DNA of 62,824 bases, filler included, from Kipferlia bialata (taxonomy: Eukaryota): NCBI GenBank assembly GCA_003568945.1. It is 4 parts of 3 records of this genome, joined end to end, with 100 filler letters (N's around TTAATTAATTAA, not from the genome) between each part and the next. Parts side by side here need not be neighbours in the genome. Positions count along the whole stretch, not along the records: positions 1 to 12,110 come from BDIP01000180.1; 3 more parts are not named here. The stretch is one strand, 5' to 3'. Position 1 is the first letter of the stretch. The number at the start of each line of letters is the position of its first letter. A program made the translations under genes and the position numbers. The notes under the pieces were generated by a model. The model saw only the letters and a list, made by a program, of their open reading frames with translations. It made no database searches and was not told the origin of the DNA. Positions 1,477 to 52,161 of this stretch are shown piece by piece.

Positions 1477-1781
1477 CTATGCGTCTCCTGTGATGACTCC
1501 CATGACTGACATGATGGTGTTGAGGATGCCTAAGGGGTTAGAGGAGAGGATTCATAGAATCAAAGACATAAAGGTAGTAAGGGAGTATATGAAAAAGTTG
1601 ACATTGAATATACATGCGAGCATGATGGTGATGAGGATGCCTGAATAGTTAGATGAACAGAACAACAACTGTTACTGAGTCCCTTTCAGTATATAATATA
1701 TACAATACTCTCCCACTTCCTACCTGTGACAGTCAGCACGAACCCTGTGAAGGACCAGTGCCACCTGACAATAAGGGTGCA

Positions 1782-1819
<38 letters not shown>

Positions 1820-3581
1820 GGGTACCTGATCTCATAGTTCTTCTCGAGTGCCTCTCTCTCATGCTCCAGGGCTAGCTCACGCATCCTCTCGGCCTAAGGG
1901 GTCAGTGTATAGACTGACAGAAACACGGTATTGTAACTATATGTATATATATACCTCAGCCTCTGCCTCTGCCTCTGCCTCTGAGTCCTCTTGTATACAT
2001 TACTATATATATATATGAACCTATAGTATATGTATAGACTACAACATAAATATTGCAACACTATGCATATATACAACAGATGAACAGGTATACATATATA
2101 CCTCAGCCTCCGCCTTTGCCTCTGCCTCTGAGTCCTCATATATGTATGTATAGATACATGTATACACTAATGCACTGTCTCATTATACAATATATACTAT
2201 ATATATACAGTGAAATATAGTAGATTCGCACCTCTGCCGCTGCCTTTGCCTCTGCCTCCGAGTCCTCGTGTATATACATAGAGTAATATCTAGTAGATGG
2301 TAGAGTATCTAATGTATACGCATATATGGTATATATATAGTATGTAGACATGTATACACAAACCTCTGCCTCTGCCTTTGCCTCTGCCTCTGAGTCCTCT
2401 ATGGCCCCATAGTCACTGGACTCCACATCAATCTGGTTGACGGCAGTAGCTATTGTTAGTCTAATGAAGTCATTAGAATAAGAAATAGTATATATGTATT
2501 CCTATATACTATAGTCACTGGACTCAACGTCAATCTGGTTGACACCAGTGGCTATTGTTAGTCTAATGACTCATTAGAATTTCAAATATGTATACTTATC
2601 CTATAGGATACTGGACTCACTAATACATCCACATATAATTGTAGCAGTATAGAGTATATATAGAGAAACGCATACCTTCTCCACTGAGCATTGAGTCGAA
2701 TGGCATACTATATATATAGTGTATACATATATATGTAAGATGTAGTATATACCTTCTCCGCTAAGCATTGAGTCGAATGGCCCCCTCACTGTGGCCAGGG
2801 AGTGTGCACGCTCACGGCCCATGACCCTGCTGCCAGTCTCCCTGGGGGGTTAAGGTACATAAATAAATGTACAGAGAGAGAATGTATATGTATATATATA
2901 TATAGAGAGAGAGAGAGAGATGGTCCATGACCCTGATGCCAGTCTCCCTGGGGGGTTAAGATACACTACTCTATATATATATACTATACTATATGCACAT
3001 ACATATAGTGATATATGTATGTATATATATATAGAGAGAGATGGTCCATGACCCTGCTGCCAGTCTCCCTTTGGGGTTAGTGAATACGTATATACCTTTA
3101 CTGTGAAGTTACGAGTAAACCACAAATATTCATTGAATGTCCATAATGAACCAGTCAATAGCAATGTATGTATACATATGACTATGTAGACTGCGTATAT
3201 CGATACCTTGCAATGTTCGCCAGGATGTTCCTTCTGCCAGTACCTTCACAATATATATATATATATACTAGCTATGTATACATAACATATATATAGTATA
3301 TACGTAGTATATATACCTTGCGATGTCCGCCAGGATGTTCCTCCTGCCAGTACCTTCACTATACATGTATATATACATATACTATGAGGTATATATATAA
3401 ATATATATATTGCATATACATACTTAGTATCTATATACCTAGCAATTTCTGCCAGGATGTTCCTCCTGCCAGTACCTCCACTATACATTGCAATGTCTGC
3501 CAGGATGTTCCTCCTGCCCAGTCTCCTAGGCTCATCAACCAGGGGGGCCTCGCTGGGGTGAGTGTATGTACATGTGTATAC

Positions 3582-3620
<39 letters not shown>

Positions 3621-5624
3621 CTGCCTGGCCTCCTTGGCTCATCTACCAGAGGGGCCTCACTGGAGTTAGTATATACATTGAATGTATATATATATATATA
3701 TATATATATAGTGTGTGTGAGAGAGAGAGAGAGTGAGACCATAATAACATACCTCCCGTGTGTATCCTCGTCTGAGTTCTCATCCAGGAAGTCAGCCATG
3801 TGCTTCTGCCTGAGGGTAAGGATACATGCACTAAATATAGGCATCCATTTATATGTATATGTGTATATATAAGTTCTGTACAGGAGGTCCGACATGTGCT
3901 CCAGCCAGGTATGGGATATATATACTGTACACTGTGCAATTAAACAAAACAAAAGAGTCATTAGTAGATCTAATGGGAATATCAGATAATGATATATATG
4001 CATACCTAGTCTTCTCGAGACCCGTGACGTCTGGCTGGGTCAGAGAGGCAGACATGCACCTGAGGGTAAGGAAGATATACCTAAAAATAGTATATATACA
4101 TATACATACATGTAACAGTATAGAAGAGAGAGGGAGACACACGTACAAATATTATATATATATATTATAGGTTCATGTCAACACACCTAGCTCTGCTGCC
4201 CCTCCTCCCGCTGTGGTCCCTCTCTGACACACTGGCCCTGCGCCTGGCAAACACACTGTCTGGCAATTAGGGGCTAGGGGGGGGGGAGAGATACACAGTT
4301 CATATATTTACTCAAGTATAGAGAATATAAAATTATAGATATATGCTATATAGTATAACATGTATACCCCCTCTCTGCCTCTCTGACACACTGCCTCTGT
4401 GCAAGTGGGAGATATATACACCAGTCTATATAGAATATATAGTTATAGATATATACTATATAGTATAGACTAGTACCTCCTCTCTGCCTCTCTGACACAC
4501 TGCCCCTGTGCAAGTGGGAGATGGAGTCCTCCACACACATATATATATTAGTATATATATACTATTTGCATACAATACATATGTGTGTATACCCCCTCTT
4601 TGTCTTTCAGAGACACTGCCCCTGTGCAAGTGGGAGATGGAGTCCTCGACACTGTCAATGGCATCCCTGGGAATAAGGGGCTAGAGGGAGAGAGAGAGAG
4701 AGAGAGGAAGGGAGCGAGAGGGAGATGGAGGCCTCGACACAATCAATTACGATGAGAAGGATGAGAGAGAAAGAAGAAGCAAGTGACTAGGACTGTACTG
4801 TACCGATACTTACTTGACCATTCCGTATCTGTCGGCACCGGCAAGGACAGACCTGGGAATAAGGGTGCAGTAGAAAGCAACAGATAGAGACACCATCGGT
4901 AGTATTAGAAAAAGTATGTTAGGTATGAAAGGACGAAGACGTACACTGTAGCAGCGAACACGTCCTCCCCCTCTGTGTTCTCATGGGTGTCTGAGAGAAG
5001 GTGGTGCGTGGACTCGCCGGCATCGGCACCCTCCCTGATCACAAACCTAGGCAATTAGGGGGCTAGAGAGAGAAAGAGAGAGAGAGAGAGCATCGGCACC
5101 CTCCCTGATCACAAACCTATGTATTAGAGGGCTAGAGGGAGAGAGAGAGAGAGAGAGAGAGCATCGGCACCCTCCCTGATCACAAACCTAGGCAATTAGG
5201 GGGCTAGAGAGAGAGAGAGAGAGAGAGAGAAGGTTAGATATATAGAAATTTATATATAGAGAGAGAGGGAGGATGATGGAGCCAAAGGTGGCCAAAGGCA
5301 GCGGAGAAGACTGGAGAAGTAAATGGGTCCTTGCAAAGCGTATTTGTGGTATGCTTACAGAGACGGATCACGCCAAACCCTCACACTTAGAATATCGTGT
5401 AAAACTAATTGAATATGGATGTGTGAAAGACGCATAACCATACAAAATATACATAATGTATATATAATAATTGAATACAAATCAAACAGTACTATACCAC
5501 AATTACCTAGCACTGTGCTGATGCTGGGCACCACAGCTGCTATGGTGACACTCAGGATGTATATCACAATGGTGCAGCCCAGCTCGAGACGTCCAAGGTC
5601 ATGGGTACGGGCTAAGATAAGGGT

Positions 5625-5660
<36 letters not shown>

Positions 5661-7116
5661 GGCCAAGGTCATGGGTACGGGCTGGAATAAGGGTGTAGAG
5701 AGAGAAACAGATGGGGTAACCCTGACACAGAGGATTCATATGAAGAGGGCATATATTCTATATATATATATATATATATGCACACTCACATGTGATGAGT
5801 GACACTGCTGCGTCTCTGGAGCAGTGATCCACAAGGGGGTAGCAACAGGTGACAACAGTGGCCATGAGGACCTGGCATAAAGGGGTGTAGAGGGGGAGAG
5901 AGAGAGAGAGAGAAAAAATGGTCCACAAGGGGGTAGCAACAGGTGACAACAGTAGCCATGAGGACCCAGTATATAAGGGGTGGGAGAGGGAGAGAGAGAG
6001 ATCGGTCACCGATCGAGGAAATGGTCACTCCAAACTGGTGTTATGGGTACCGAGAGAGAGAGAGAGAGACTCTGTATACCTTGAGTCCGATGGCCAGAGA
6101 ACTGTCAATAAAAAGGGGTGTAGAGGGCGGGAGAGAGAGAGAGACACTTCTAAGTGACAGAATATACCTTGAGTCCGATGGCCAGAGTACTGTCAGCCAT
6201 AAAAGGGTGTAGAGGGCGGGAGAGAGAGATAGATAGAGAGAGAGAGAGACTTTATACCTTGAGACCGATGGCCAGAGTACTGTCAGCCTTGAAGTTGAGC
6301 AGGATATCATCCCTGGGATAAAAGGGTGTAGGGGACCACATTGAGGGTCTAGGAGTCTTGTATTCATTGAAATTTGTAGTGTCGTTCACCACAGTACTAT
6401 TAGTCTACCACACCTAGTGTAGGCACATATATGGGTATAATATACAATATGTGATATATACCTAGTGTCTGTTCCAAAGACGGAGCTACCAACAAGGGCA
6501 AACACGACCTCCATGACAAGGGTCAGAGAGAGACCTGGGGTCAATCGGAGACAAGATAAGATGACAAAAGAATCAATCAGACACAACGCGTGATGAGACA
6601 TATATATTGTGATAATAATAATATGTGTTATATCCATGACAAGGGTCAGAGAGAGGCCTGTGGTCACGATAACAACAAGATAGCAGAGGAATATCGTGTG
6701 TGGATACATAATTGTGATGAAATATCATGTCAATATCCATGACAAGGTCAGAGAGAGACCTGGGGTCAATCGGAGAGTATTTCGTAGAATGTGAATACAC
6801 CAATCAATATGAAATTCATACCGTAGTCAATTCCCTTAGTGCAATGATGTCCCTCTGCTTACATGTATATACCCATATATATATATATATATCTATGTAT
6901 ACTTACCAGATAAAAATTATATATATATACTACTACTATACATATACATACCATAATTTATCCCCTTTGTCACAATGATGCCCCTCTGCTTGTGGGTGCC
7001 ACCCACATACACATCTCTCTCTCTCCCTATATACATATACTACTATACATATCATACCATAGTTGATCCCTTTAGTCACTATGACCCCCCTCTGCTTGTG
7101 GGTGCCACCCAAATAC

Positions 7117-7151
<35 letters not shown>

Positions 7152-7258
7152 CACACTATTACACTTACCATAATTAATGCCTTTAGTCACTATGACCCCC
7201 CTCTGCTTGTGTGTGCCACCCACACTGTTGTAGAGGGAGGAGATGGCAAACTGGGCAC
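1477..7258 (-). CDS. Amino-acid transporter (Aa_trans / SLC36-SLC38-like), C-terminal half, many short exons; 5' part probably lost in the N gap at 7392-7491
   Basis: Exon translations GAQFAISSLYNSVGG..KGINY / GLSLTLVMEVVFALVGSSVFGTDTR / DDILLNFKADSTLAIGLK / VLMATVVTCCYPLV..CSRDAAVSLI / CTIVIYILSVTIAAVVPSISTVL / ...WHWSFTGFVLTVTG / ILNTIMSVMGVITGDA* match the order of the last transmembrane helices of Aa_trans proteins (GxxxFG..ILLNF; YPL). Confidence 0.7.
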
Positions 7259-7495
7259 CTATTATGAGGACATATCAATATATATATATACTATATTAAG
7301 AGAGAGAGAGAGAGAGAGATAGAGAGAGAGACCCACACTGTTGTACAGGGAGGAGATGGCAAACTGGGCGCCTGGCATAAAGATATATACANNNNNNNNN
7401 NNNNNNNNNNNNNNNNNNNNNNNNNNNNNNNNNNNNNNNNNNNNNNNNNNNNNNNNNNNNNNNNNNNNNNNNNNNNNNNNNNNNNNNNNNNCTAG

Positions 7496-8097: not shown

Positions 8098-11000
8098 ATG
8101 ACAGCCGAGACCCCAGCTGTTCGTACTCTTGAGGACCTCCAGGTGTGTTGTGGTGGTGTTGTGCTGTTGGAGGGTTTTTCGGGGTCGTGACACCCGGTGT
8201 GTGGGGTTGTGTGGACAATACTTGTATTTTCGTTGTTTCTTTGTCATTCAGACTCTTTGCAGAGCTCCTGTGCAGGGATTACTTGGTTTGTGTGCTTCCT
8301 ACTTCATTAAGCCTCGTTATATTAACCACAGGCCGCCCTCGAGACCAACCCATACGATCTGGGTTCCTGGGACATTCTGCTGCAGGTGAGACCCTCTGGG
8401 TAATGTCTGCGTCGTTGTGGTTGGGGGCGCCGGCCCAGAGATGGGGGTGGGGGTGGTATGCGGAGGTGGTGGGGGCGAGGCTGGTCTTGTTTGGGTGTTC
8501 GGCGCGCGTTTCCCTAGTTCCTCCCAGAATCAAGAGTCTTACCTTTCAGAACCACGCCGACACTAGCGAGGACCTTGAGTTTGTGACCAAGTGTTACGAG
8601 GACTTCCTTACCGTATACCCTCTGTGCTTCTACTACTGGAGGCGTTACGCCAACAACCTTCACAGGCTCTCTGGTACGTTGCCAGTGTCTGAATCAATTT
8701 GTCACGTCATCAATCTATTGTACCCTAATACACATAGTATAGCTATTGTTATCTGATTTTTACCTGTATTCTAAGTGTTCCTAGGTAAATATATCCCTAA
8801 ACGGGGGTTGAAGGTTGTGTGGGAGGTGTTGCTGTACTCTTCGTTTCTGGTTATCTTCTATTTGTGATTTATGGTTGTATATATGGGTGTAATCTTAGCC
8901 TCTGGTGGGTGACCGAGAAAGTGAGGGGGAGTGTGCGTGCATGTTTGTGTATTATTAAGTCACCTACCTCTCAACCTCACTTATCATACAGCAACGAGTT
9001 CTTGACACAGTTGAGACTCACATATTTATGTTTATTATATTCTATTATGCCACAGTTATGATACTATTGTGTTCTAAGCATATGTCTGAGCTTTTGTGAT
9101 TATTATATCACTCTTAATATTGTAATTATTGTTCTTGTGATACCTCTCTCTTTACCATGCAGCGCCCGGCTCCAGCCTCTGATCTACATCGATAGCCTTT
9201 GCAAGAAGTAATGTATGTTATGTGGGAGTGGGAGAGCAGTTGTGTCAGTTGTGTTATGATATAGTTATGTATAATCAGTGTAGGTATTCATCTCTATAGT
9301 ATATATGTGTGGTGGCCACAAGAAATAGTGTATAGATACTATTGTGTGTTGCTTTATGTACAGTGTTCATGATATATTATACATATGTATATATACTTTG
9401 TGTATATCGTATGTATCATGTAGGTGTGATCCTTCACTATATATGTATGTAATATTGTGTTCTCTCATAACGGGTCGATATATATATACTTCTTGTATTA
9501 ATGTATAATATATATCTATGTCTTATATAATTTGTCTCTATCTATTCTACTAGTTCTATGTAGTGTGACCACCGCTTGTGATATTCGCATCTCTCTATCT
9601 CTCTGATCCCACATCTATCTCTCCCACTCCTCACCCGCAAGGAGTACCACGGCTGAATCCTCTTCTATCCATCATGCTTATTGTGTCGTATACTGTGTGT
9701 ATACTATTTACATATATACCCCTTCTCACCCCCCAGGCGAGGGTGCCTATGAGGCTGCCCTGGGCGTGTACCTGAAGGGCGTGGCCCTGCTCCCATCCCT
9801 CTTTGACCTCTGGAACGAGCTCTTTGCATTCCTCATCAAGGAGGAGGAGGGCGAGGGCGGTACGTTCTATTGGTAGTCTCTCTCTCTTTTCCTATCCGTC
9901 GTCTGCTCTCTTTGGCGAGGTCACCTCCCTCCCCCCCCCCTCTTCTCTCCCTCTCTCTATATGTATATTTCTAACCCCCAGAGAATGTGACTGCCGAGGT
10001 TGTCCTCGAGCACATGGAGAAGGGACTGTGCCTGGCCGGAAACGACTGGAGGGCAGGTATGTACATTAATATACTTCCATACTATACCCCCTCCATCCCC
10101 CCACCCTCCTCGGCTCCACCGCCAGCCTCCGTCTCTCTCTCTCTCTCCCTGTGCCCCCCCACCCCCGTCTATCCCTAACCCCTTAGGCCCCATGTGGATC
10201 AAGTACATCGAGTACGCCACCAAGACTGGCCAGGAGGAGATCATCATGAAGGCCTACCAGGTATATATGGTTAAATATGTATATATATATGCCAATACTG
10301 TGTATTTGTGTATGTCTCTCCCTCACCCCCAGCTTGCCTCCGAGCGCGTCTACGCCTCCATCGTTGAGGTCAAGACCCAGTTCGAGGCATACGTTGCCCA
10401 GGCTGGTACGGTCCATCCCTCTATCTCTATATATATGTATAGCTGTACCATGCTTACCGTCAGTGGACGCCAACCCCATGGGCGCCTCCATCATTGCCTC
10501 CTTCGACCACTCCATCGAGACAGCCACTAGGTATGCATATATATATGTATATATGCATATGTATATCTGTGTATATATGTATATATATATGGTATTTATA
10601 TGGGACCTCACCCCCAGGGTTGTCGAGGACGAGAAGCGCGTGGCCACCCGCACCTTCTTCCACCCCTCCCCCCCCGACGCCCCCTTCGTCTCTGCCTGGA
10701 GGAAGTACCTCACCAGGGAGAGCAACCCCAAGGTATATATACAATATACATATAACCCTCTCTCTCTGTGTGTGTGTGAGTCTTGATGATATACTCACTC
10801 CCTAGGCTGTCGTGAAGGCACCCGTCGTTGCTGCCCCCGCCCCCGTTGAGGCCCCTGCCCCTGTCCCTGTGCAGCCACCCGCCGGCATTGTGGCTGGTGC
10901 ACCAGGTATATATATGTGTATATATGTATTTATATTCTCTTTCTTTCTCTTTGGTTTTCAATATGAAGTGTTCTCGTGCTTACCCCCCAGGTGAGGTTGC

Positions 11001-12029
11001 TGAGGAGGAGGCCCCCGCCGCTGAGGCTGAGGCTGAGGTTGAGGTGTGTACACCACTATTAACCACATTTATATATATATATGTATACATGTGTGTCTAA
11101 CCCCAGGCTGAGGGTGACGCCACCATGGAGACCGAGGAGGCAGGCGAGGCAGAGGCCCTGGCAGCCGCCCTCAAGGTATATATATAACCACACCCCCACA
11201 CACATATATATATGTATATATATATATATACTAGATGCAATGTACTTATATATCAGGAGAGGGACCAGGCCTGGGTCCAGTTCCTCTTTGAGCGTGCTCT
11301 TGTCCCCCTGTCCAAGCACACTGACTTCTGGTACCTCTACCAGGCATACCTCGCCAGGTACCCACACCCCCACTTCTCTCTGTTATATATCTATCTATGG
11401 GTTCGCTCACCCCCAGGGTCCAGGGATCTGAGGCTGCCTACGCCACCCTGTCCCGCTCCCTCCCCCTCCACATGCACAAGGTATGGACACCATGTATACG
11501 TACCACTATATGCACATTGATATATATATGTGTGTGTTTGTTAGATACTGATGCCAGGTGACCCTCCCCGCCCCCTACCTGCTCATGTCCGACGCTGCCA
11601 GGTCCGCTGGCAACCAGGTACCCACTCGCTTGCTCTCTCTCTATATATATAAAGAATTATGTATATGAATATTTACTCTGCTGTATCTTTCTAACCCCTA
11701 GGAGGATGCCGAGAAGTGGCTCCGCCAGGGACTCGAGATGTGCCCCAAGTCCGCCGACATCAGGTACAACATGCATATATATATATATGGTATATAGTAT
11801 ACAGTTCTTATATATACTTACCCCCAGGTGTGCACTTGCCGCTGTGCTCGCCCCCACCAACGCCCTCGAGGGACTCAACGTACGACATTAGCTGTTTCTC
11901 TCTGTCATATATGTATGTATTGATGTATAGAAAGATACATTGCCTCACCCCCCAGATTGTGAAGGAGGGCCTCGAGACCCTGCCCCCCTCCAACAGGAGC
12001 CACCTGGCCATGGTGGACTCTGTCACAAG
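8098..12029 (+). CDS. PRP39: Pre-mRNA-processing factor 39-like HAT-repeat protein (U1 snRNP), about 18 exons, 3' truncated by scaffold end
   Basis: MTAETPAVRTLEDLQ|AALETNPYDLGSWDILLQ|NHADTSEDLEFVTKCYEDFLTVYPLCFYYWRRYANN..|GEGAYEAALGVYLKGVALLPSLFDLWNE..; later FFHPSP...AWRKYL and VQFLFERALVPLSKHTDFWYLY, typical of Prp39 HAT repeats. Confidence 0.8.
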
Positions 12030-12068
12030 GTATAATATACATACACACTCTCTCTGTCTCCCTCTTAC

Positions 12069-12110: not shown

Positions 12111-12210
12111 NNNNNNNNNNNNNNNNNNNNNNNNNNNNNNNNNNNNNNNNNNNNTTAATTAATTAANNNNNNNNNNNNNNNNNNNNNNNNNNNNNNNNNN
12201 NNNNNNNNNN
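12111..12210. other. Artificial scaffold linker N44-TTAATTAATTAA-N44
   Basis: All-frame stop linker inside an N run, flanked by poly-C/poly-G contig ends; identical linkers at 25224-25323 and 52062-52161. Confidence 0.95.
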
Positions 12211-25223: not shown

Positions 25224-25323
25224 NNNNNNNNNNNNNNNNNNNNNNNNNNNNNNNNNNNNNNNNNNNNTTAATTAATTAANNNNNNNNNNNNNNNNNNNNN
25301 NNNNNNNNNNNNNNNNNNNNNNN
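25224..25323. other. Artificial scaffold linker
   Basis: N44-TTAATTAATTAA-N44. Confidence 0.95.
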
Positions 25324-36269: not shown

Positions 36270-37040
36270 CTACTCTGTCTCCTCCTCAGATGAGTCCATC
36301 TCCTCTGTCAGAGGTGTGTGCATGACAGGGGTGGAGAGAGATGAGACAGACACACCCCCTGCACCCTCTCCCTCTCTCTCTCCCTCTCTCTCCATGGCTG
36401 TCAGAGGTCTGTGGGGCTGTGACACCTCAGCCTCCCTCTCCCTCTCCCTCCTACCCACATATCCATCTGCCTCCGCCTCGCTGTCGGTGTAGACCTGACA
36501 GTGAATTGTGACAGAGAATGGGATACAATACATGCACAGGTGTCTTTCGCCACATAGTATTCCAAACATTTACACCAAACCAGACAGTGCAATGCACCTA
36601 ATTCTTTAATACAATAAATACATGTGCATACATACACTATACCTGACAGTGCATGGTCTCTGCCTCACTGTCCTGTCTGGACCCAAGGGCCAGGGACCCA
36701 GTCAGTCTGGCATTAGGTAGAGATAAGAGAGAGGGAGGGGAAACTAAAAAATGAAACACAAGTAGACACCCCAGTATTTCCATATACCCCCCACCTGTCC
36801 GATATGTACCTTGATGATATCCATGCATGGGTATATATATATATGAATGTATATATACACATACACCCACCTGTCCGATATACCCTGGCTGTGTTCATTG
36901 ATGTATCTACATCTTTATATATATATATATGTATACCTGTCCGATATGCCCCTGGCACTGGGCAGGGCACTGCTCCTGCGTCTAGGCACAGCAGACTCAG
37001 GCCTGGGGGTAAGGGATACACACACACACACACACACATG

Positions 37041-37071
<31 letters not shown>

Positions 37072-37641
37072 CTACAGTAATGATGACATTTGTTAATGTA
37101 TACAATATACACTTTTATAATGTTCTCATCAAAGACTCTCTCACCTGCTGTAGAACGGTATTCCCTCGACCTCTGCCTCTCCCTCCTCAACACACTGCAC
37201 ATCCTCTACACCCTCAATGCCATGACCCTCGGAGTCAGAGGGAATGCAGGAGGAGACCTAAAGGTGAGGCTATACTATATACAGTATAAGAACACAGTGG
37301 GTGAGAGGGTATGTAACCATACACAGTCAAGGGAGTTGTGAGTACAAATGTATCGGTAAAACGATATATATATACATACGATATATATACACAGTCCCAG
37401 GAGGAGAGCTAGGGGTGAGCCTATACTATATACAGTCTAGAGACTGGGAGAGAGAGACTATTACTCTGTATACATACACACCTGGTGCATGTGGCTGAGC
37501 AGGAAGGCAGACAAGGGGGTATAACACATAGTGTAGACTACATACTCACACACTATACACACACCTGGTGCATGTTGCTGGGCAATGGGGGCAGGCTGGT
37601 CTCTGACACTACTACATACTGTATGCATACACATCCCCCCT

Positions 37642-37682
<41 letters not shown>

Positions 37683-39085
37683 TGTACCTGGTGCATGTTG
37701 CTGGGTAGTGGTGGCAGGCTGGTCTCAGAGACTAGGATAGGGGTGCTGTACTCACTCACAGGCACTCCCTCCCCCTCTACACCCTCTACCCCCTCTATGG
37801 ATGAGTGCACTATGTCGATGCTCTCCCAGGCACCGGAATCAGACACCTCTACCTCTCCCTCTCTCTCTGACTCTACCTCTGCCCCTACCACAGATACACT
37901 GGGTGGGTACGGTCTAGCAGGACCTGAACCCTCACCCTCTGTATCACTGTCTGTGTCTGTATCACTCTGTCTCTCAGGCGATGGCTCACCTAGATACCTA
38001 GGGGTGCCTGTGATGCTCATGGATGAGGTAGTGGTGGAGGCCTCTCCCCCTTCCCTTCTTTCCCTCTCTCCCTCTACCACAGCAGGTGTTGCAGTACTGG
38101 ATGCAGTGGGTGTTGGTGCAGGTGCTGTGAACCAGTCATCAGCCACAGCATCCTCCTCCTCCCTCTCCCTCTCCCCCTCTACTGCACCCTGTCCACCCTG
38201 GGCTCTCTCCAACTCTGCAAACTGCCTCTCTATCATAGCAATCTCTGCATCCTCTGCATCCTCATCAGTTAGGGGGGCAGGGGTGGGCTGGGGATTAGTA
38301 ACCATTATCCATGCATACACATATTGATATATAAGTACCTATCTCACACCTGTCTAGCTGCCTGTGCCCTGTGCAGTGTCAGTATCAGTATGCATCAGCT
38401 GTGCATATTGGTATATTACATATATATAAAAATATACCCCCACCTGTCTAGCTGCCTGTGCCCTGTGTAGTGCCCTCCTAGCCCTGCCAGTGCACATCAG
38501 CTTGCATAGCCTGGGGTTAGTAGGCATATAGATACGTCATATATATATATAAATAGTAGTACCAGTGCACATCTTCCTGCCCAGCCTGGGGGAAGAGAGG
38601 CATACAATAACACTGTAACCGGTACACAGTACCAAGAGTATACATGCATATATGCACATATGTAATAATAATAGTATTGGCATACCTGATACTACACCCC
38701 ACGCATATCCAGCCCAGTCTGACTGTGCACAGTGCCATCAGTGACACAAGCACAAGGAGACAGGGGGTGGACAGAGAGGTTAGGTACAGACCGGTCCTAA
38801 GGTCAGATAGAAATGTGAATAGAAATATTTATAGGTAGACAGATAGTGTGAATAGAAATATATATAGGTAGACAGATAGTGTATACACTATAGAAGAGGG
38901 GTGGGCAGAGAGGTCAGGTACAGACCGGTCCTGAGGTTAGGCGGAGATAGTAATATGTATTAGTATATATAGAGAGAGATATATAGATAGCATATATCAC
39001 AATATAAGAGGGGTGGACAGAGAGGTCAGGTACAGACCGGTCCTGAGGTGAGATAGTTATACATACATATTAGTACAAATATAAC

Positions 39086-39116
<31 letters not shown>

Positions 39117-42100
39117 TATACACACTATGTCACAATATCCGATACCCAATCACCCCTGTCACCAGCATGTACTCCTGGGTGTGGTAGGAGGACAGGTGTA
39201 TATATCCACATATATATACACATATATATGTATATAGTATATCATGTATCACTATNNNNNNNNNNNNNNNNNNNNNNNNNNNNNNNNNNNNNNNNNNNNN
39301 NNATCACTATATATACCGTATGACCCCTGTCACCAGCATGTACTCCTGGGTGTGGTATGACATGTGGTAGAAGGACAGGTGTGTGATGAGGGCAGAAAGC
39401 TCGGGGGGGCGGTTGAGGACAAGGGAGAGCTGAGGGTGAGACGGAGAAGTATATATATAGAGAGCAAGACACACAAATACATGCACTCACATAGTTAGTA
39501 CAGTGCCAATGTATATTAGAATATACCTTCACCATCCAAGCTGGTAGACCACTCTCCACTATGCCCCACATGGCATCAGACACATATGCATATATACACA
39601 TACTATAAATACAATATATATATATATATAGTATCTATACACATACTACACACACCTTAACCATCCAAGCAGGTAGACCACTCTCCACTATGCCCCACAT
39701 GGCATCAGAGACATATGCATATATACTCATATATATACACTATAAATATTATATATATATACTCATACTATACACACCTTAATCATCCAGTGAGGCATGC
39801 CACTCTCCACTATGCCCCACATGGCATCAGACACCTCGTACCCAGTCACGTCAGAGTACCTTAAGGTGAGTGTATATATGTGTATACTATGCTATAGGAA
39901 TCTATAACTATATACATGGCATCAGACACCTCGTACCCAGTGACGTCAGAGTATCTATGGTGAGTGGGGGGTAGTACTTGTATATACCCATACAAATATA
40001 TCTCTTGAGAAACGTACTCAAGGAACGGTGTTGAGGTGGGATAATTCCACATATAAGCACCCATTATCAAACGTGAATATCAAGTATATATACATACACC
40101 TACAATGAACTAGATTGTAGTAGGTCAGTACCTCTCTATGGGGTACATCTCGCTGTCCATCAATACCCTCCACGGGGTGTATGTCAGAAGGAGGCCAAGG
40201 TACAGGGCGCTGAAGGGGTCGCCTGGGGATAAGACCAGTGAGACATATTACTAACACATATTTAGCGTACACAACCACCCACCGTTGTATGCCCCAGCTG
40301 ACAGCAGGACCCCGACCATCTCTCTCTCCCTCTCAATCACACCGGGCAGAGAGCCAGAGGCCTAACATGGTGAGCAAGGCAAAGATGTCCATAATATATA
40401 TGTACTTTATTCATACACACATATATATACATGCAGAAATATACCTTCATATGTTGCTTAGCGTCACTAAGTGTCACAGTGGGTATGGCATGGCTGTCAG
40501 TGTCATCATCCTCTGCACTGGCTGAACCCTCAAGGGCCTCCAGCCACGTGACATCGTTGCCTGGGGGGAGACGGTGGAAGGTATTTACACACACTAAATT
40601 GCTTCATTCAGCCTGCATATATATATACACATTTCAGATAATGCACCATACGGATTATAAATATACCTTGCACCACAGCACTTAGCAGAGGGTCCTTCTC
40701 CACACTGAGTGCCAGTCTGTATGGGCTGTGGGTGGTGAGGGACAGGGCATCCAGGTGCATCCCAAGGGCTAGGTGTTAGTATGATAGTATGATAGTATAT
40801 ATATAGTAGGTATATATATATATGTATATATATTGATGTATATGGGTGGACAGAGACAGGGCATCCAGGTGCATCCCAAGGGCTACTAGTTAGTGTCAGA
40901 GAACTATGAATACAAGAGTATACATGTGTGTGTATGTAAAGGTACATGACGCCCAGGTGCATCCCAAGGGCTGGGGGTGAGGAAGAAGAGGCGTCGTTAT
41001 GTATCTGTACCCACCCCAGGTATATATACACATCACTACGATAATGTGGGTGGGTATATACAAACATAAACATGTACACACTGTACCTGTCCTTGCCTCC
41101 TGTCCCGTCAGTGCTAGCTGGTGGTGACCATTCCTAGGGTAAGTATTGAGATGAAACATAGGCATATACAATGTATACAATGATTAAGTATGTTAGTGCT
41201 GATCATTCCTATGGGGGTGAGGGATATATAGGAGTATTAGTATACATCAAGGGGATAAATGTAGTATAAACTATAATCTATAGCTAGTGGTGGCCATTCC
41301 TAGGGGGTGAGGGGTATGTAATGATATGGAATAGAGATGCATTTACACTACAAACATATACTCGTAACCATATGAATACCCGTCCGAACAACACTCATAG
41401 AAATGTAATTAACAACCCGATGGCCATCTCCATGCCTGTGCTGACTAATGCAGAGTATTATGCAATACATACGTATGTGTATATATGTGCACCCACTGTA
41501 CACACCTATCCCCGATGGCCATTTGCATGTCTGTGCTGACCAGGGCAGAGTGTCATATGTAACGCGTCATTATACATACATAAATATACATATGAAAATG
41601 TTTGCAAGTACATTGGATATAATGCCCTGGGGGATAAGGGGGTGAGGCAAAGGATATATGGATACATATACTAGAATATATAGATATATCGATAGAAATA
41701 CAAATAGATATAGATACATCCATACCTTGTGAGCCACCACCCTGAGAGCTGTGTCCAGGAGCATGTCCACACCGTCCATCTGAACAGCTGGGGGTGAGAT
41801 AGTGTAATGTATACACTATATATGTACCAATACATAGATATATAACACATATATCAATAATGTCACCATCCATCTGCACAGCTGGGGGTGGGGAGACAGA
41901 GTACTGTACACACTGTGTGTAGCAATAGAAATGAATATACATCCATAATATAATACACAATTCAAAAATGTCCACACCGTCCATCTGCACAGCTGGGGCT
42001 GAGGGGGATAAATACACAAAAACAAACATATACTAATAGAATTGCATATATCTTCTGACTTGGGTCATCACTGGAGAGTGTATCAGCAATATAACTCATA

Positions 42101-45100
42101 CACTGTGGTATAGGTACAACAATACCCCATAGGTATAGGTACAACAATACCCCATATATATATATATATATACCTGGGTCATCACTGGTGAGTGAGAGAT
42201 AGGCATGCACCGCCAGACCACCCAGATGGCCACCCTGCTGGTGAGAAAACAACAATAATACATGTACACACTATAACACAGTTGTACAATTAAAACATAT
42301 GACCACCATTGGGGAGACATGGGATAAGAATATGTAAGGTATAATATGTTGGAGTGAGTAGAGTATATATACCTGCGCTGCCTGCTTGGCTGTGGCTGTT
42401 GCTATCACCCTCAGCATAGGTATGTCATATACATGGTGGACCAAGGGGTTGGAGGGGGAGTAGAGAGAGCGGAGGTCGGCCAGGGGGAGGAACAGGTCCA
42501 TTCTGGGGGTGAGTTTAACACGGATATACATATATAAATGGAAACATATATGTTTGTATGTTAACACACACATCCATGGGACGAACTGGCCCATTCTAGA
42601 GAGTGAGGGAGAATTATGTTCTATATTGACACTATGTCTCCGCACCTGTGCCTGGTAAGTGCACTCGGGTAGAACATGGACTCATACTATATATATATAT
42701 ATATGAGTGTACTGTATATATAAGTATTCATAAGTGCTACTGTACCTATGACTAGTCAAAGCACTCAAGTAGAACATGGACTCACTGGACCCACTCAGAG
42801 TGGCCACAGACAGAGGGGCAATGGCCTGGCTGGCATGTTAATAATACATATATACATATATATGTGTGGATATAATATGACATAACATGTATACTATGTA
42901 TCCACTCAGAGTGGCCACGGACAGAGGGGCTATGGCCTGGCTGGGGTGTTAGAGTACACACACCTACACAAAACCATTTCCACACACCTAGCTCTTGGCT
43001 GCACTGTCCCTCCCGGTCTATGTATCAAATAGTACTATGTGCAATATGTACTCATTCACTGTACATGCATGTAGTGCATACCTAGCCCTTGGCTGCACCG
43101 TCCCCCCCGGCCTGTACCCTATCAGGGACAGGTAGCCCATGCCAGTCAGACCCATGTGGCACCTGGGGTGAGGGGTATGTGTTACATAACATATATAGAG
43201 TCTATCTACTGATGATATGCCAGTCAGACCCATGTGGCACCTGGGGTTAGTATAGTATAGAATGTATACCTGGGGTGGGCATTGCACTATTACACATACA
43301 CATACACTTATACTCACCCTGCACTGGCACTGGCCAGGTACATGACCCTGGCGTGTGCCAGGTCCTTGTCCATGCCCAGTCCCTCCAGGTACATGTGGCC
43401 CAGCATGCCAAACACAACACCCTCCTCAGTGCACTCGACCTAGGTGTTGGAATAGCATATAGTACATGGTATAAGTATATATATATAGTATATAGTATAT
43501 ACACTCTGAATGCCAAACACCCTCCTCAGTGCACTCAACCTGTGTATTAGATGTAGTAGAAAAGTTATATATAGTAAATAGTAAAGTTTAGTGGAAGGTG
43601 TATACTCGTGTAGAACATAGTATTTACGTTCAGTGTGGTCCCACAAGTAGTATAGTAATATACAGAATAGTCTCACCTCTCCCTCCATTCCACCCAGGGC
43701 TGCCACTCCACTGAACAGTGCCTCATGGGTACCCCCAGGCACACTCTATGGTGAGGCATATATACAAGGAGTATATACATGTGTTTGTGTATATGAATGT
43801 ATAGATAGATAGATAGGACATGCCTCATGGGCACCCTCGGGCACACTCTATGGTGAGGCATACACAATACAATTAGACTATTACATATATACATTAACAC
43901 ACATAAGCAAATACACATAAGTATATTCACATATATATATGTTAATATAATGAATGCCAATGGCTGACAGTTTTTCTCTCCTATCTGCTCATATATTTAC
44001 ACATACACATATATATATACATAATGAAACTACTACTATGTATCGACCTATACAATACCAATACCAACCTGCGTGTATGCCTTTCTGCTCATATATATAT
44101 ATATATATATATATAGGTAGTGCGTGTGTGTTAAAGGAAATACTTTTAAAGAGTTACTCATAACCCACCTGCGTGTATGCGTCCCCTATCTGCTCGTATG
44201 TGTAGTAGCGCATGTGACCTGGGACAAGGGGGTGGGGGTCCTGCTTGTAAGGGAATACACGTATACACGTATACATATACATATGTATATATATATTTTC
44301 AATTATATAGGGACAGAGGCTGCATCGTGCACTGTTAGTGTCTACTCCTATTCATACAAGTAATGATTAGAGCATACTAATTACTATATATACATAACCA
44401 CTTAGACCATACCTCGTGCACCGTGAGTGTCTCTGGGGGCACCCCATCCACAGAGGCCAGGACCTGGGCCAGGACCTGGGGGTGGACAATCTGAATCTAT
44501 ATAACAAACTATACTATCATACATAGATGCAAAACACTTGGGCCAGGACCTGGTGGTGGACTATCTATAGATACATACACGGTGTATATATATACCCCAA
44601 TACCTCATCGTATCCGTGCATGTGCCACGGCATCAACCGAGGCATATACACCTACATTTCTATCAAGAGATATATACAAGTATTCATATATATCAATGTA
44701 TATGTATATACCTCATCGTATCCGTGCATGTGCCAGGGCATGAACTGTCCCAGGTGCGAGGTGGCATGGGCATACAGGTCAACTGCTTCGCTGATATGAG
44801 ACATGTACACTATATGAGTATGGTATATCATGGATGTATTGATATATATAATGAGTGGGAGGTGCAATGGGCATACAGATCAACGGCCTCACTGGCTGGT
44901 AAGAGGAGTACACTATACCCATACACACAACGACTACAAAACATATAATATATATAACTAATACTATATATAACTTATATTATATTCTATATTATAACAT
45001 ATATTATATATAACTTATATCATATATCTAGGCGGATGAGCCGAACGATGCATATAATGTGCCAGTTGAGATGTTTACATGTTCTCACTGAGGGAAACAC

Positions 45101-45736
45101 ATGCACAATGTACGAATGATATTTACACATGTGATTTCTTTATCAAAATGTACATAAGCTAGGTTACCCTTACCGTGTGAGTGGGTCCTTTGCCTCCTCG
45201 TACCCCTCTGGCATGGTCCAGCCTGCCAGGGAGGAGCGGGACTCAATCCACCTGGGGGTGGTGTATGAGAGTGTATATATATGGAGAGATGTTATATGGC
45301 ATGACATTGGTGACATCTAGACCCTTATACATGTATTATATAACTACTCACAGTACCTATGTGCCTGTGCCAGTGACACCTCCTCCACCTGGTCCATCTC
45401 TGGCATACACTATATACTAAGTACACACATATATATAGATATATAGATACATACANNNNNNNNNNNNNNNNNNNNNNNCACACATATATATAGATATATA
45501 GATACATACAATAACACACCTATGTGCCTGCTGCAGTGACACCTCCTCCACCATGTCCATCTCTGGCATAGACAACATATACACATATATATACATATAC
45601 TTTTATAGTAACTGTAGTATACCTATGAGCTTGTGCCAGGGACACCTCCTGCACCTGGTCCATCTCTGGCATGGGGTGGGGGGAGGCACCAAGGGCCACA
45701 GTCATCCACTGGGCAGCGGCCTGGGGGTGAGGCACT

Positions 45737-45773
<37 letters not shown>

Positions 45774-46365
45774 AGAATATACAATATGAGAGGAAGAGGG
45801 AGAGATGCACCAAGGGTATCACCCATACCTCCACTGTTGCACCACTTAACAAAGCACAATCTATATCAATCCTATCCTATATGCAACCCATATCACTTAT
45901 GTACACCTCGTGGTCTCTCGTTGCCTAAAAATGCTAGAGAGACAGACCAGTCTCAGCATATACATCAGTATACCCCTACCTCGTGTTCCACTGTTGCCCC
46001 CTTCTTGTATACTTATGCACTTATACATAGATGCATATATATATGTATATATACCTCGTGGTCCACCGTGGCCCCCTTGTACCCAACCAGGGAGGAGTAG
46101 CCTAGGAACCTAGTGGGTAAGCGCATTATCGAATGCAACAAAAAGAAATATATACTAATAAAAAGGTATATGCCCATATATATACTACCCAACCAGGGAG
46201 GAGCCAATGAACCTGGGGGTAGGTGGTCAACTAGTACTAATGATCATTGAATATATAACACAAATATTAGAATTCTCTATACACATTAAACACCTAAAGA
46301 AAATACGATATATATACATACCTGGCCGATGCCCCCTTCATGACCATCTCTGTCAGGTACTGTCA

Positions 46366-46398
<33 letters not shown>

Positions 46399-46471
46399 CT
46401 ATATATACACACACACATATACATATATACCATACATATATACCTTGCTGATGCCTTGTCTCCCTTCATGA

Positions 46472-46511
<40 letters not shown>

Positions 46512-46600
46512 TAATATATATATGTACACATACATATATATATACTATATACATACCTAGCCGATGCCTTGTCTCCCTTCATGGCCATCTCTGTCAGGTA

Positions 46601-46641
<41 letters not shown>

Positions 46642-48711
46642 CATACCTAGCCGATGCCTTGTCTCCCTTCATGGCCATCTCTGTCAGATAGTGACTGCGG
46701 CTGGTGTCATCCAGGGACTCGGCCCTGGGTTAGAAGTATGTAATGTCTATATAGTATGCAAAGTATTAAAACGTATATATTACTGACATATGTGGCTGGT
46801 GTCATCCAGGGACTCGGCCCTGGGTGTGTTAGAAGTATACAATGTTATGATAATATAAACAGAAGAAGAAGAATACTCTCGAAGAGTACGGGGGTCATCG
46901 AGATACTTGGCCATGAAGGGTAAGACGCATATATGTAATACTGTAACAGGTACACTGCCTGCAGAAATACACACACTCGCTTGTGCATTGGTATCTCCAA
47001 TGTATCAATGCATTATGCAATATCATGAATCATGAATGTACATATATCTACACACACCCACTCACTTGTGCATTGGAATCTCCTCCAGCAGCAGCGGCTT
47101 GTCATGCTCAAAGTAGGGGGCGGTGATCTGGGTATTAGATATATACCCTACAGTATATAGAATAGGTGATCTATGGGTGATCAAAGAAGCAGAATGTGAC
47201 AGGGAGCCAGTGATATACTATAAAACCTGGAATTTACATATGACCCACATTTTCAGTCTCCCCTTGAATCCGCTATCACTATACCATCATTGACATAACA
47301 TTGTCTAACCCACTATCACCATGCGTTTCCCGCCTACTGCTACTCACCTGTCTCTCCTTGAATATCCAGTCGTTGATGTCATTCAGATACATGGTCGCAA
47401 CGGAAGGGACCTGGGAGTGAGAGAGAATATAGGTATATGTAACACACGCACTCAATAATTTGTAGACAGAGAGTAAATTAGGATACAGGAGGAAAACTTA
47501 CAACAAACACCATACACACTAGCCATCCACTGCTGTATCCCATTACCACCCACACAAGTGATAAACACAAATATTGAATGTATATACATATACAACAATA
47601 TATACTTGTCACCCACCGTTGTAGCCCCGTACCACCTACATCGATATAGCAATATCATACTAATATATATCATGATGTTAAAATTGGAATAGTAAGAACT
47701 TCCGTACCGTTGTAGCCCCGTACCACCCATAGAGATGAGATGCGGCCAGGGAGAGAGAGGCCAGGTCATGGCCTAGTCTAGTAGGGTAAGAGAGAGAGAT
47801 ACACGCATATATGAATATATAACTATGAGTATAGAGTGAGAGGCCAGGTCATGGCCTAGTATGGCCGGGTAAGATAGAGGAGGACCATATATACATCAAT
47901 ACGTATATATGGGTGTATGTGGGTACAAAGGGGAAAAGGCATGGTAATGGTCCAAGATATGGTTAAACAGTCGAGTATACACTCTTATTCAAACAATAAT
48001 AACACACAGATATACAACATGTACCTGTGCGCCGATGTGAGGTGGGTTAGACCCAGGGACACGTCCTGTACATCACCTGGGGTGGGAAACAGAGACATAG
48101 TCAATACAGAGGCAAAGAGGTAATAGTACACACATGGGATGGGAAACAGAGACAGAGTAGGAGTGTGCGAGAGAAAGAAATAGAGATAGACTAACAACAT
48201 ACCCTGTCCCAGTGTATATAGCAGAGAGAGAAGTATATATATGTATACATACACATGACGCACCCAGTCCCAGTGTATACATCAACCCCAGCAGCATGTG
48301 CAGCTCTGGTATACATACATACATATAGAGTATACACATGAATATAGACACATACATACCTAGCCCTAGTGTGTACATCAGGCCCAGCAGCATGTGGAGC
48401 TCTGCCCTGTCGGACACACTCAGAGGGAGGGGGAGAGGGGCATCAGAGACATCAGTACTGATTGCACTCAGGGGGAGGGGGAGAGGGGTATCAGAGACAT
48501 CAGAGACAGTGTCAGTGTCAGTAGTGACAGTGCTGACATCAACCTCTGTCTCCACATCCATGGGGGCATCAGCATCAGAAGAGGGGTCGTCACTATCTGC
48601 CTCTACGCCTGTATTGGCCTCAGTATCTGTTTGCCTGTCCTGTCTGTACTGGTCTAGCAGGGACTCGGCTAGGTGTCTGGGGGTCAATATACCTGAACAA
48701 TATACCTAAAC

Positions 48712-48744
<33 letters not shown>

Positions 48745-49470
48745 TAGTAAGGATTCGGCTAGGTGTCTTGGGGTCAATATACGTACATAGAGAGAGAGAG
48801 AGACATAGAGGGATACAGGTGGTGACTCAGCAAGGTGTCTGGGGGTCACTGATACATATACAGAGAGGTATACTACCTTTACATACTATATGGTGGTCCC
48901 ATGCCTATATCACTAATGTGTGTATATATATACAGATGTATATATTGTGTATATATACACTACCTACAGTCAGTGTGTCTCATGCTGTCCCATGTATCTG
49001 ACATAGCTATATGTGTCTATACATACCCTAGTATATATAATGTGTACATACCTACACTCTGTGTGCCTCATGCTGTCCCATGCCTCTGTCACGGGGAGTA
49101 TGGGGGAGGGGGGAGGGGGAGGGACATCCTCCTCGGCCTCCTCCAGCTCTGCCTTGGTGTCAATATCAGCCTCAGCCTCTGACACACTCTCCCCCTCATC
49201 ACTGGTCTCTCCTTCTGTCCCCTCCGTCTCATACACAGCATGCTCCTCAGCAACACCCTCAACACCCACGATATCGTCTGTCTCTCCCTCAGTAGGGTAC
49301 GCCGGCTCCTCTCTCTCAACCAGACCCTCCCCCTTTCTCTCTCCCTCTGTGTTGGAGTGAGGGTCATTCACCATGATCTGGGACACATCCTGTCCATATA
49401 CACTGCCACACAGACACAGCAGCAGTCCTACTAACACTACAAGCGGCAGTAGCCGCATAGAGGCCCTCAT
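36270..49470 (-). CDS. SEL1L/Hrd3-like Sel1-repeat type I membrane protein (ERAD), about 30 short exons
   Basis: Signal peptide MRLLPLVVLVGLLLCLCGSVYG, acidic N-terminus, Sel1 repeats (AELHMLLGLMYTLGLG; HYLTEMAMKGDKASAR|FLGYSSLVGYKGATVDHE; FGMLGHMYLEGLGMDKDLAHARVMYLASASAG|CHMGLTGMGYLSLIG), a hydrophobic segment near 38700-38760 and an acidic tail ending EEMDSSEEETE*. That this is one gene over the whole span is inferred. Confidence 0.65.
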
Positions 49471-49660: not shown

Positions 49661-51942
49661 ATGCTTACCAACGCCGCCAGAGCTTTTGGAACCGTCAGGC
49701 CCACCTTCAAGCACCCCTACCTGCCCCACACCGCCGAGTCGAGGGCCAAGGCCATGGCTGTGATTGGATGCAACCGTGACGAGGGCTGTGACCTTTTCAT
49801 GGACATCCCCGGGGAGCTGAGGTGGGTTCAGGCACTGTATAACCGATATTGAGTAATAATGATGGTTATTGACCCCCAGGTGTGACTCTCTGGAGCTTGG
49901 GGAGGCCATGTCTGAGTCCCAGGTCAGTGGTCTCTCTCTCCTGCTCTCAGTCACTCTCTCTCAGTGCTGGTGTAGTCACAGTCACTGTTGTCATATGCTA
50001 GGCCTGTGCTATATTGCTGGATGACATATCAATGACTATATCATACCTCTCTCTCTCTCTCTCTATCTACATGTCATACCAGTACACCCTCTCTATCTCC
50101 CCCCCACCCCAGGTCCATGCCCACTTTGAGGCCATCTCCAACAAGAACATGAAGGCATCGGAGGGACCATTCTTCCTGGGTAGGGATACACATTTATATA
50201 TGTAGTGACATTCATGATTGTTAGTCTCCACTTGTCATGCCGTGTCAATTGTGTCGGTGTCGGTTTGTTTCTACCATATATTGAATATTAGTTACCTTCT
50301 CTCACCCCCCAGGCGCTGGTCTGTACCGCCACCACATCCCCACGCCATTTGTATGTATATATGTATGTATGTAATGCATGTGTATTACTCTCCCTCACCC
50401 CAGGCGCTGGTCTGTACCGCCACCACATCCCCACTGTTGTGGACCATGTGTTCCAGAGGTCAGAGTTCATGACTGCCTACACACCCTACCAGCCAGAGGT
50501 ACATAGCATGAGTGTATATATATGTATGTATAATTGTATATTCATACATATACCATGTGTATACTATCACTATATGTACTACCTCAATATTATATGCATA
50601 TATACATACCCTCACTGCCAGGTCTCCCAGGGCACTCTCCAGGCCACTCTATACATATATGTGTATATGTCAACTGATGCATCTTTGTTCTATGTCTACT
50701 ACCCTCCAGGTGTCCCAGGGCACCCTCCAGGCCCTCTTTGAGTACCAGTCCCTCGTGGCATCCCTCACAGGTATGTACACATAGGGGGATAGAAGTATAC
50801 ATTTATAGTGGGTGTACACTCCCTCTTCGTTGACTCTCTCCCTTCTCTCTCTCTCCCTCCCCCCCACCCCAGGCTGCGATGTGTCCAATGCCTCCATGTA
50901 CGATGGAGCCACATCCACAGTCGAGGTACACATTACTGTTATACCTATATCTGTTTAGATAGACATTCCCTGCCTTCCCCCAGGCAGCCCTCATGGCTGC
51001 CCATACCGTGTGCTTGAATACATAGTATATATTAGTTAGTTCTATTTGTATATATATATTCAATTAGTATGTATACCTTCCCACTTCCCCCAGGCCGCCC
51101 TCATGGCTGCCCGTATCTCCAGGAGGAAGAACGTGCTCATGTCCCCCTCCCTGCACCCCCAGTACTCTGAGGTATATATGTACTATATATTTGTATATTC
51201 ATGACATTTGTGTGTATGTGAAACAGTTGTGTATATATGATGCCTCCCCCTCACCCCCAGGTTGTGAAGACCTTTGTATACATTTTACTTACACTGACAT
51301 ATATATGTATATATTAATGATTGTCTCCCCCTGACCCCCAGGTTGTGAACACCTATGCCCAGGCCTCAGGTGCCATTGTGCCCACCACAGTGGACAGCAA
51401 GGGGTGCACAGACGCAGGTCTCAGTATGTATATACATACTATATATAATGTATATGTATATATAATGTGTGTGCCCAGTAGTATTTTGGATATATATTAT
51501 TATAGTATCCAATATCCTTACCCCCAGGCTTCGATGCGCTGATTGACGCCGTTGACAAGAAGACTGCCTGTGTCGTTGTGCAGAACCCAGACGTATACGG
51601 CAATGTGCACGACATCTCAGCCCTCGCAGACAAGTGAGTGTGTGTGGATTATACTGCATTCATTTGTATATGTATCATCTTGAGTCCCTCTCACCCCCAG
51701 GTGCCACGAGAACAAGGCCCTGCTCGTTGTCACAGTCCCAGACATGGCATCCCTCGGTACGGGTGGTAATGTATATGTATGCATATATATATATATACCT
51801 ATACCTAACCCCCAGGCCTCCTCGCCTCCCCCGGCTCCAAGGGTGCCGACATTGTTGTGGGTGAGGGCGGCTCCCTGGCCTCCCCCATGTCCTTTGGAGG
51901 GCCCCAGCTCGGGTGCTTTGCCACAAAGGCTAAGTATGCCAG
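49661..51942 (+). CDS. gcvPA: Glycine cleavage system P protein subunit 1 (split, GcvPA type), 11 exons visible, 3' truncated
   Basis: YLPHT...[68 protein letters not shown] and [19 protein letters not shown]. Exons 49661-49821, 49880-49922, 50113-50179, 50404-50498, 50710-50770, 50873-50925, 51094-51171, 51342-51417, 51528-51633, 51701-51756, 51816-51942. Confidence 0.93.
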
Positions 51943-52061: not shown

Positions 52062-52161
52062 NNNNNNNNNNNNNNNNNNNNNNNNNNNNNNNNNNNNNNN
52101 NNNNNTTAATTAATTAANNNNNNNNNNNNNNNNNNNNNNNNNNNNNNNNNNNNNNNNNNNN
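52062..52161. other. Artificial scaffold linker
   Basis: N44-TTAATTAATTAA-N44. Confidence 0.95.

Follow-up and report, generated by a model that had tools for sequence, protein, structure and literature searches.

Copies of exon edges with mostly silent differences lie in introns of Kipferlia bialata genes

In a 62,824-nucleotide stretch of Kipferlia bialata DNA (the window), to which all copy counts given here refer, we found that many introns contain a partial copy of a flanking exon together with its splice site and that these copies differ from the live exons predominantly at silent positions. The copies are a real feature of whole genes and probably of the genome. The sequence-only reading had singled out one locus, the exon at 4666-4593 with two intronic copies; this locus is not a special case, as the same arrangement recurs about 70 times across five genes in the window. 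The account that we favor, with somewhat more confidence than doubt, is that the copies are harmless duplications, that the two versions go back to separate alleles in a recombining population of very high diversity, and that the copies are decaying.

Half-exon copies in the window

In a self-comparison of the window, near repeats fell at 0-7.4, 34-52, and 56-61 kb, and the stretch from 7.4 to 34 kb had none. We compared each intron of five gene models with its two flanking exons. These models come from copy-rich regions, the genes having been selected for being copy-rich; two were taken from annotated proteins, and three were built by hand. The proteins matching window queries were KIPB_001295, KIPB_001293, and KIPB_001308 (100%, 98%, and 100% identity, respectively), and exact mapping onto the window gave 18 GT-AG exons for KIPB_001293 and 35 for KIPB_001308. 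Exons at 34-52 kb were defined by the annotated protein P0003 and by open hand-built chains. A sixth gene model, at 55.4-57.0 kb, was left out before counting because its frame was not open.

1480..7258, minus: host gene KIPB_001293, amino-acid transporter (Aa_trans); 24 anchored copies, 12 of 17 modeled introns
36273..49470, minus: SEL1-repeat gene KIPB_001308; 39 anchored copies, 26 of 34 introns
49661..51942, plus: hand-built gene model; 3 copies, 3 of 10 introns

The last of these is a candidate glycine cleavage P subunit, which it resembles. KIPB_001293 matched PF01490 (Aa_trans) over residues 66-185 with 31.4 bits, above the curated cutoff of 25.6, the match being limited to profile positions 228-357 of 410.

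The comparison returned 80 matches, of which 71 were anchored at a splice site to within 3 nt (35 on the acceptor side and 36 on the donor side), while the nine unanchored matches were excluded from the main counts. Copies were present in 44 of the 75 introns of the five gene models, and none of the 80 matches touched both exon ends, as a whole-exon copy would. 5' halves with an AG lie upstream of the exon, and 3' halves with a GT lie downstream. The repeat unit consists of one exon edge, one splice site, and adjacent intron (median 100 nt), and there are one to three copies per exon edge, not many homogeneous units as in a minisatellite. This polarity is expected if tandem duplication occurred once and one of the breaks fell within the exon; one match among the hits had the wrong polarity and looks like a cross-match to a copy of a neighboring exon. 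An exon edge with three copies is found in KIPB_001293.

6822..7111, minus: 3' end of exon 7258-7169, copied three times in succession; sequence comparison

The mutual differences of these three copies are mostly silent, and the farthest copy has a 1-nt deletion. Over the anchored set, microsatellites at the breakpoints were mildly enriched (26 of 71 versus 18-20%), and the tendency of the nearest copy to be the most alike was weak (11 versus 5, with 3 ties).

When the same search was run with non-adjacent exons, it gave 0.7 matches per set, none of them anchored at a splice site, and chance matches are therefore negligible. Two control genes had no copies in 22 introns of about 80 nt; their boundaries are off by a few bases, and only the zero count was used. 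The multi-exon genes at 9700-12030 and 22070-23850 (both plus strand, one a protein kinase) have introns of about 80 nt and no copies. Because such short-intron genes lack copies, copy density differs sharply between neighboring genes. Median intron length was 300 nt with copies versus 110 nt without, and the copies account for the great intron length in some genes. For K. bialata, the available text of the genome paper gives 124,912 introns in 51 Mb (PMC5874029).

More exon-edge copies occur at 55400-57100 and 60600-61250 (minus), in genes with incompletely modeled frames, and at 147-410, outside the modeled genes, a 70-nt segment is present in three near copies with a period of about 90-100 nt. 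Gene models appear to be misled by half-exon copies. At 3439-3552 (minus), the KIPB_001293 model runs through one (LGRRNILADIAMYSGGTGRRNILAEIAR), and either the model is wrong there, with the exon ending near 3487, or one copy has been absorbed into the protein. An RNA contig has 1020 nt upstream of 5048 versus 560 coding nt in the KIPB_001293 model; several exons of this gene are probably hidden in the gap at 7392-7491, and its modeled first exon (7966-7840) may be wrong. The N runs at 12111-12210 and 25224-25323, with a TTAATTAATTAA spacer, are artificial contig joins, and gene order across them is unreliable; the N layout at 52062-52161 is similar.

The exon at 4666-4593 and its two copies

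A search of public sequencing runs gave two runs of one sample, neither recorded as RNA, which were examined here as contigs and not as raw reads. Run X1 is DNA, and run X2 was treated as RNA because of its GT-AG joints. The features of the locus are as follows.

5090..5187, minus: two copies of the acceptor and 5' part of exon 5046-4945; spliced contig and sequence comparison
4714..4747, minus: decayed upstream copy of the 5' part of exon 4666-4593; 5 differences, 4 of them amino-acid changing
4593..4666, minus: live exon of KIPB_001293, 74 nt, encoding DAIDSVEDSISHLHRGSVSERQRG; 0 differences from the spliced X2 contig
4260..4592, minus: intron of 333 nt containing both copies; spliced from the first donor, joint 4259-4593
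4477..4536, minus: copy 1, 3' part of the exon and an unused GT donor, 60 nt; 7 silent differences
4368..4413, minus: copy 2, 3' part of the exon and an unused GT donor, 46 nt; 6 silent differences
4187..4259, minus: next live exon, with an internal repeat (RRASVSER); spliced contig and sequence comparison

The X2 contig (2067 nt) has four GT-AG joints, which lie on both sides of the exon at 4593..4666 and include 4593-4259; the spliced match of P0002 to this exon is exact. The joint 4259-4593 skips 333 nt (CT..AC on the plus strand), and as to which codon set is in the mRNA, the contig has that of the exon and skips both copies. Exon 5046-4945, two upstream of 4666-4593, begins in the same contig at the last of three acceptors. 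Thus, only the outermost true splice site is used in the mRNA, as judged from one contig of one gene, and copies are absent from the one RNA contig, contigs being prone to lose rare forms. As proposed in the sequence-only reading, each copy has a donor and neither has an acceptor: a GT follows directly, and no branch point and AG stand in front. The offset of copy 1 from the exon is 116 nt, and read-through would be out of frame.

Over the full length of both copies, there are eight distinct exon-copy differences, at exon positions 4648, 4621, 4612, 4609, 4606, 4603, 4600, and 4594, with 4648 sitting on the junction edge. All eight are third-position and synonymous, and the claim of zero amino-acid differences therefore stands; the claim of six silent differences in the last seven codons is correct for copy 1, while copy 2 has five. 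Because five changes are common to copies 1 and 2, the two were taken as one comparison. The silent changes are concentrated in five adjacent codons, immediately preceded by a 35-nt tract that is identical in the exon and copy 1. In a simulated dead-copy model, 36-38% of changed codons were silent, and by our own arithmetic seven silent changes in a row would therefore have a chance near 0.001. The sequence-only observation is confirmed, and the silent-only pattern goes beyond the expectation for a dead duplicate.

The intron parts of copies 1 and 2 are identical to each other at 52 of 59 positions and to that of the exon at 42 of 52 (score, 12.5 versus 3.6 ± 3.2 for shuffled sequence). Two codons of the exon are rare (GAA, 0.03; CAA, 0.06), and the next exon, 4187..4259, contains, inside an RxSVSER repeat, a 16-nt exact match to the codons of the copies and not to those of exon 4666-4593. 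The clustered silent changes, the rare codons, and the alignable intron fit a change in the live exon and an allelic difference equally well. An internal RxxSV-type repeat (HRGSVSER, RRASVSER) is present at 4187-4259 and 4593-4666 (minus), in a long polar loop preceding the last helices; these motifs resemble kinase sites, which could explain constraint on the loop.

It is extremely improbable that the arrangement is an assembly artifact in which exon ends of alleles or paralogs were stacked in tandem at microsatellites. The window is a short-read draft with a repeat unit near 100 nt and many microsatellites, X1 is possibly the source data of its assembly, and the X1 contigs lead from the exon through both copies to the next exons with no single listed piece covering this whole arrangement. 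However, a separate contig assembly repeats the junctions with 0 differences. The X1 contig 3900-4526 (depth 393) contains all of copy 2 and 50 nt of copy 1 and so places two copies on one stretch, at the level of contigs rather than raw reads; the X1 contig 4502-4642 (depth 436) connects the exon end with copy 1. Because these depths are ordinary (379-453 in the remaining listed X1 contigs), stacked alleles are an unlikely origin of the locus. Moreover, one DNA contig only (X1) lies over the neighboring exons, and neither a second allele or paralog nor a second RNA contig was found there at 80% likeness. Exon-only bins have the depth of a single contig, which likewise argues against a second allele or paralog at 80% likeness. 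Because there is one DNA contig only, the sampled K. bialata looks haploid or homozygous at this locus.

Silent-site bias and splice signals across the set

Mismatches between exons and copies numbered 45 of 754, 40 of 762, and 137 of 753 at first, second, and third codon positions, respectively, giving a third-position share of 137/222 (0.62; cluster bootstrap, 0.53-0.70). In simulations in which the exon takes silent changes only and the copy takes all, this share was 0.44-0.45, with a maximum of 0.55 in 300. Divergence rose from 81/1483 (5.5%) at non-degenerate sites to 48/371 (12.9%) at two-fold and 87/388 (22.4%) at four-fold sites. The corrected ratio of four-fold to non-degenerate divergence was 4.7 (3.2-7.4 by cluster bootstrap, with none of 3000 resamples as low as 2), while a dead copy would give about 2 at most, and both versions must therefore once have been under coding selection. 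Non-degenerate, two-fold, four-fold, and intron sites rank here as they do in two long-separated working versions of a gene. As for the claim that the differences are too dense for ordinary alleles, it is fair for the tract of five adjacent codons at 4666-4593; over the whole set, the four-fold excess of about 15% would be compatible with great diversity of the species.

Neutral duplication followed by decay, with the silent bias arising by chance, edge effects, or uneven mutation rates, is quite unlikely. It is consistent with the copy-versus-copy third-position share of 28/61 (0.46), which has little silent bias and is near the neutral range, with the choice of copy-rich genes, and with the presence of copies that are heavily decayed and others that are identical. 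It does not account for the ratio of 4.7, the lower bootstrap bound of which is 3.2 versus a ceiling of 2, and the third-position excess survives edge trimming (117/186) and a count of nearest copies only (97/147). The ratio is still 4.2 without the 4666-4593 locus and one doubtful exon.

Because copy-copy differences are only weakly silent biased, most of the excess belongs to the lineage of the live exon. Over the three codon positions, changes unique to that lineage were distributed 6/4/20 and those private to copies 15/15/24. This asymmetry favors a second alternative, which we regard as possible but unlikely: duplication on the same chromosome, followed by selection for silent substitutions in the live exon and in its flank at the splice site, e.g., gain of an enhancer close to the true donor that lets it outcompete the decoy, with the copy staying ancestral. 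Donor-side third-position changes crowd toward the donor, as this would predict (39, 25, 10, and 18 by quarter, pooled; 38 versus 20 in nearest copies), and exon 4666-4593 gained rare A-ending codons while its copies match the internal repeat of the next exon. By exon, however, the gradient is inconsistent (9 versus 7 exons), and there is no shared direction of change: strong/weak swaps are balanced (32 versus 33), and the codons of the copies are no rarer than those of the exons (44 versus 52; P = 0.23). Selection of this kind would also need silent sites to change at about four times the neutral rate (our own arithmetic), and if dissimilarity was favored, changes in the copy would serve equally, without silent bias. 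Across copies, third-position differences did not increase with first/second-position differences (Spearman, -0.25 and +0.18, both nonsignificant), as expected if the silent changes predate decay. A bias toward conservative amino-acid changes was not significant (BLOSUM, -0.44 versus simulated -0.64 and -0.59).

The splice signals of the copies are largely kept. The unused GT is retained in 30 of 35 copies and lost in 5, the unused AG is retained in 31 of 34 and lost in 3, and loss per site is similar to the rate at non-degenerate positions. Unused and live acceptors differ at 5.4 of 14 positions, yet the unused ones keep the consensus (score, 5.65 versus 6.47), while random change gave a mean of 0.40 and a maximum of 2.85 in 2000, a control that scores small shifts as mismatches and so overstates the contrast. 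The branch motif is retained in 27 of 35 unused acceptors; among all modeled introns, 93 of 97 acceptors have a YYNAY branch-point-like motif no more than about 6 nt from the AG. Intron before unused acceptors is partly alike to its live counterpart, and intron after unused donors shows only random similarity (4.97 versus 4.52 for unrelated introns).

The kept splice consensus would also suit copies maintained as spare exon ends, used via repeat collapse or rare splicing, with amino-acid-changing copies purged. This is very unlikely, and we assign a similarly low probability to the variant in which codon-conserving spare ends are never spliced in but are swapped in by recombination, with selection on amino acids and consensus. 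Some neighboring copies do differ from each other almost only silently, and pseudo-sites of the human F7 gene work once the true site is lost, as described in the available text of PMC1557585. Protection today, which the sequence-only reading implied, is contradicted by the set, which carries 2 stops, a frameshift in one aligned copy, and lost GT and AG dinucleotides at about the non-degenerate rate. Copy offsets modulo 3 are 25/26/20, i.e., without frame bias, only 9 of 68 copies are in frame and stop-free, and the single spliced contig skips the copies. Given the stops, the frameshift, and the lack of frame bias, the copies are not translated now, and read-through translation was rejected.

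Proposed origin and relation to known systems

The origin that we favor, in which exon and copy come from different alleles, would involve three steps. First, break repair or template switching would often produce small duplications, with dinucleotide repeats as an aid, and only units of half an exon would persist, since these cannot be defined as an exon. Second, the live exon and the copy would derive from different alleles, either because the copy was pasted from the diverged homolog during repair or because a later crossover or conversion put the sequence of another allele in place of the live exon. Processes confined to one chromosome yield identical or homogenized copies, and we therefore infer that both versions were once live on different chromosomes. 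Translation of both versions for most of their divergence would give silent differences, splice sites that keep the consensus, and scrambled intron flanks. Third, neutral decay of the copy since then would amount to about 5% per site. With this decay counted twice and subtracted (0.27 - 0.11, our own arithmetic), silent-site diversity would be near 15%.

For K. bialata, the available text of PMC8516963 lists Dmc1, Spo11, Msh2, and polymerase theta and no Ku70; metamonads are described there as lacking Ku-type joining and fornicates as lacking Rad51A but having Dmc1. Dmc1 has been proposed, in the available text of PMC6719624, to tolerate adjacent mismatched triplets. This gene content is compatible with recombination between alleles and is no proof of it. 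The donor alleles are hypothetical, as no second allele was found at the locus at 80% likeness. Scans of metagenomes for other strains with P0003 and P0002 gave 21 and 64 pattern matches, respectively, none of them confirmed, and no relative. An expressed paralog as donor was rejected, with none found at 80% likeness among the contigs.

Mutually exclusive tandem exons are adjacent copies of whole exons, with both splice sites, that are used in mRNA, e.g., SCN exon 5. The Kipferlia copies share with them the adjacency of exon copies and the silent-biased differences; unlike them, none of the 80 matches is a whole exon, and the single mRNA contig skips the copies. Like introns created by segmental duplication, as far as described in the available text of PMC3265369, the copies are small intragenic duplications hidden by splicing that leave the protein unchanged, but there a new intron is made inside an exon, whereas the Kipferlia copies lengthen an existing intron.

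The closest layout is that of human junction-spanning minisatellites, for which the available text of PMC1557585 names F7 intron 7 (37 bp), 6-16 intron 2, CBS intron 13, LAMIN B2 (100 bp), and PDGF (81 bp). In these, too, a tandem unit over an exon-intron boundary repeats the splice site in the intron, and the most upstream donor is used while the others are silent. They are single loci with 5-25 repeats and donor sites described as identical, whereas Kipferlia has one to three diverged copies per edge, at donors and acceptors, with mostly silent differences and with over half of the introns affected in some genes. The Kipferlia copies are 22% diverged at four-fold sites, and their donor flanks are unalignable on average. 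Literature searches turned up neither these Kipferlia copies nor half-exon copies with a silent bias, and neither such a density nor the use of both exon edges; in the main text of PMC5874029, the genome paper, "tandem," "duplicat," and "heterozyg" do not occur. The layout is thus a variant of one known from human genes.

In the genome, true and decoy splice sites form numerous natural pairs, which make splice-site choice directly testable in a species whose spliceosome is reduced (87 of the 174 proteins searched for, according to the available text of PMC6679479). If the copies were spare exon ends, there would be coding selection on untranslated DNA across much of the genome. If instead exon and copy have their origin in different alleles, a single genome keeps former alleles of its exons, which would offer a route to estimating diversity and to detecting sex or inter-homolog repair in a free-living fornicate without Ku and Rad51A but with Dmc1. 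This origin would imply recombination in K. bialata, a species without sex reported in the literature examined.
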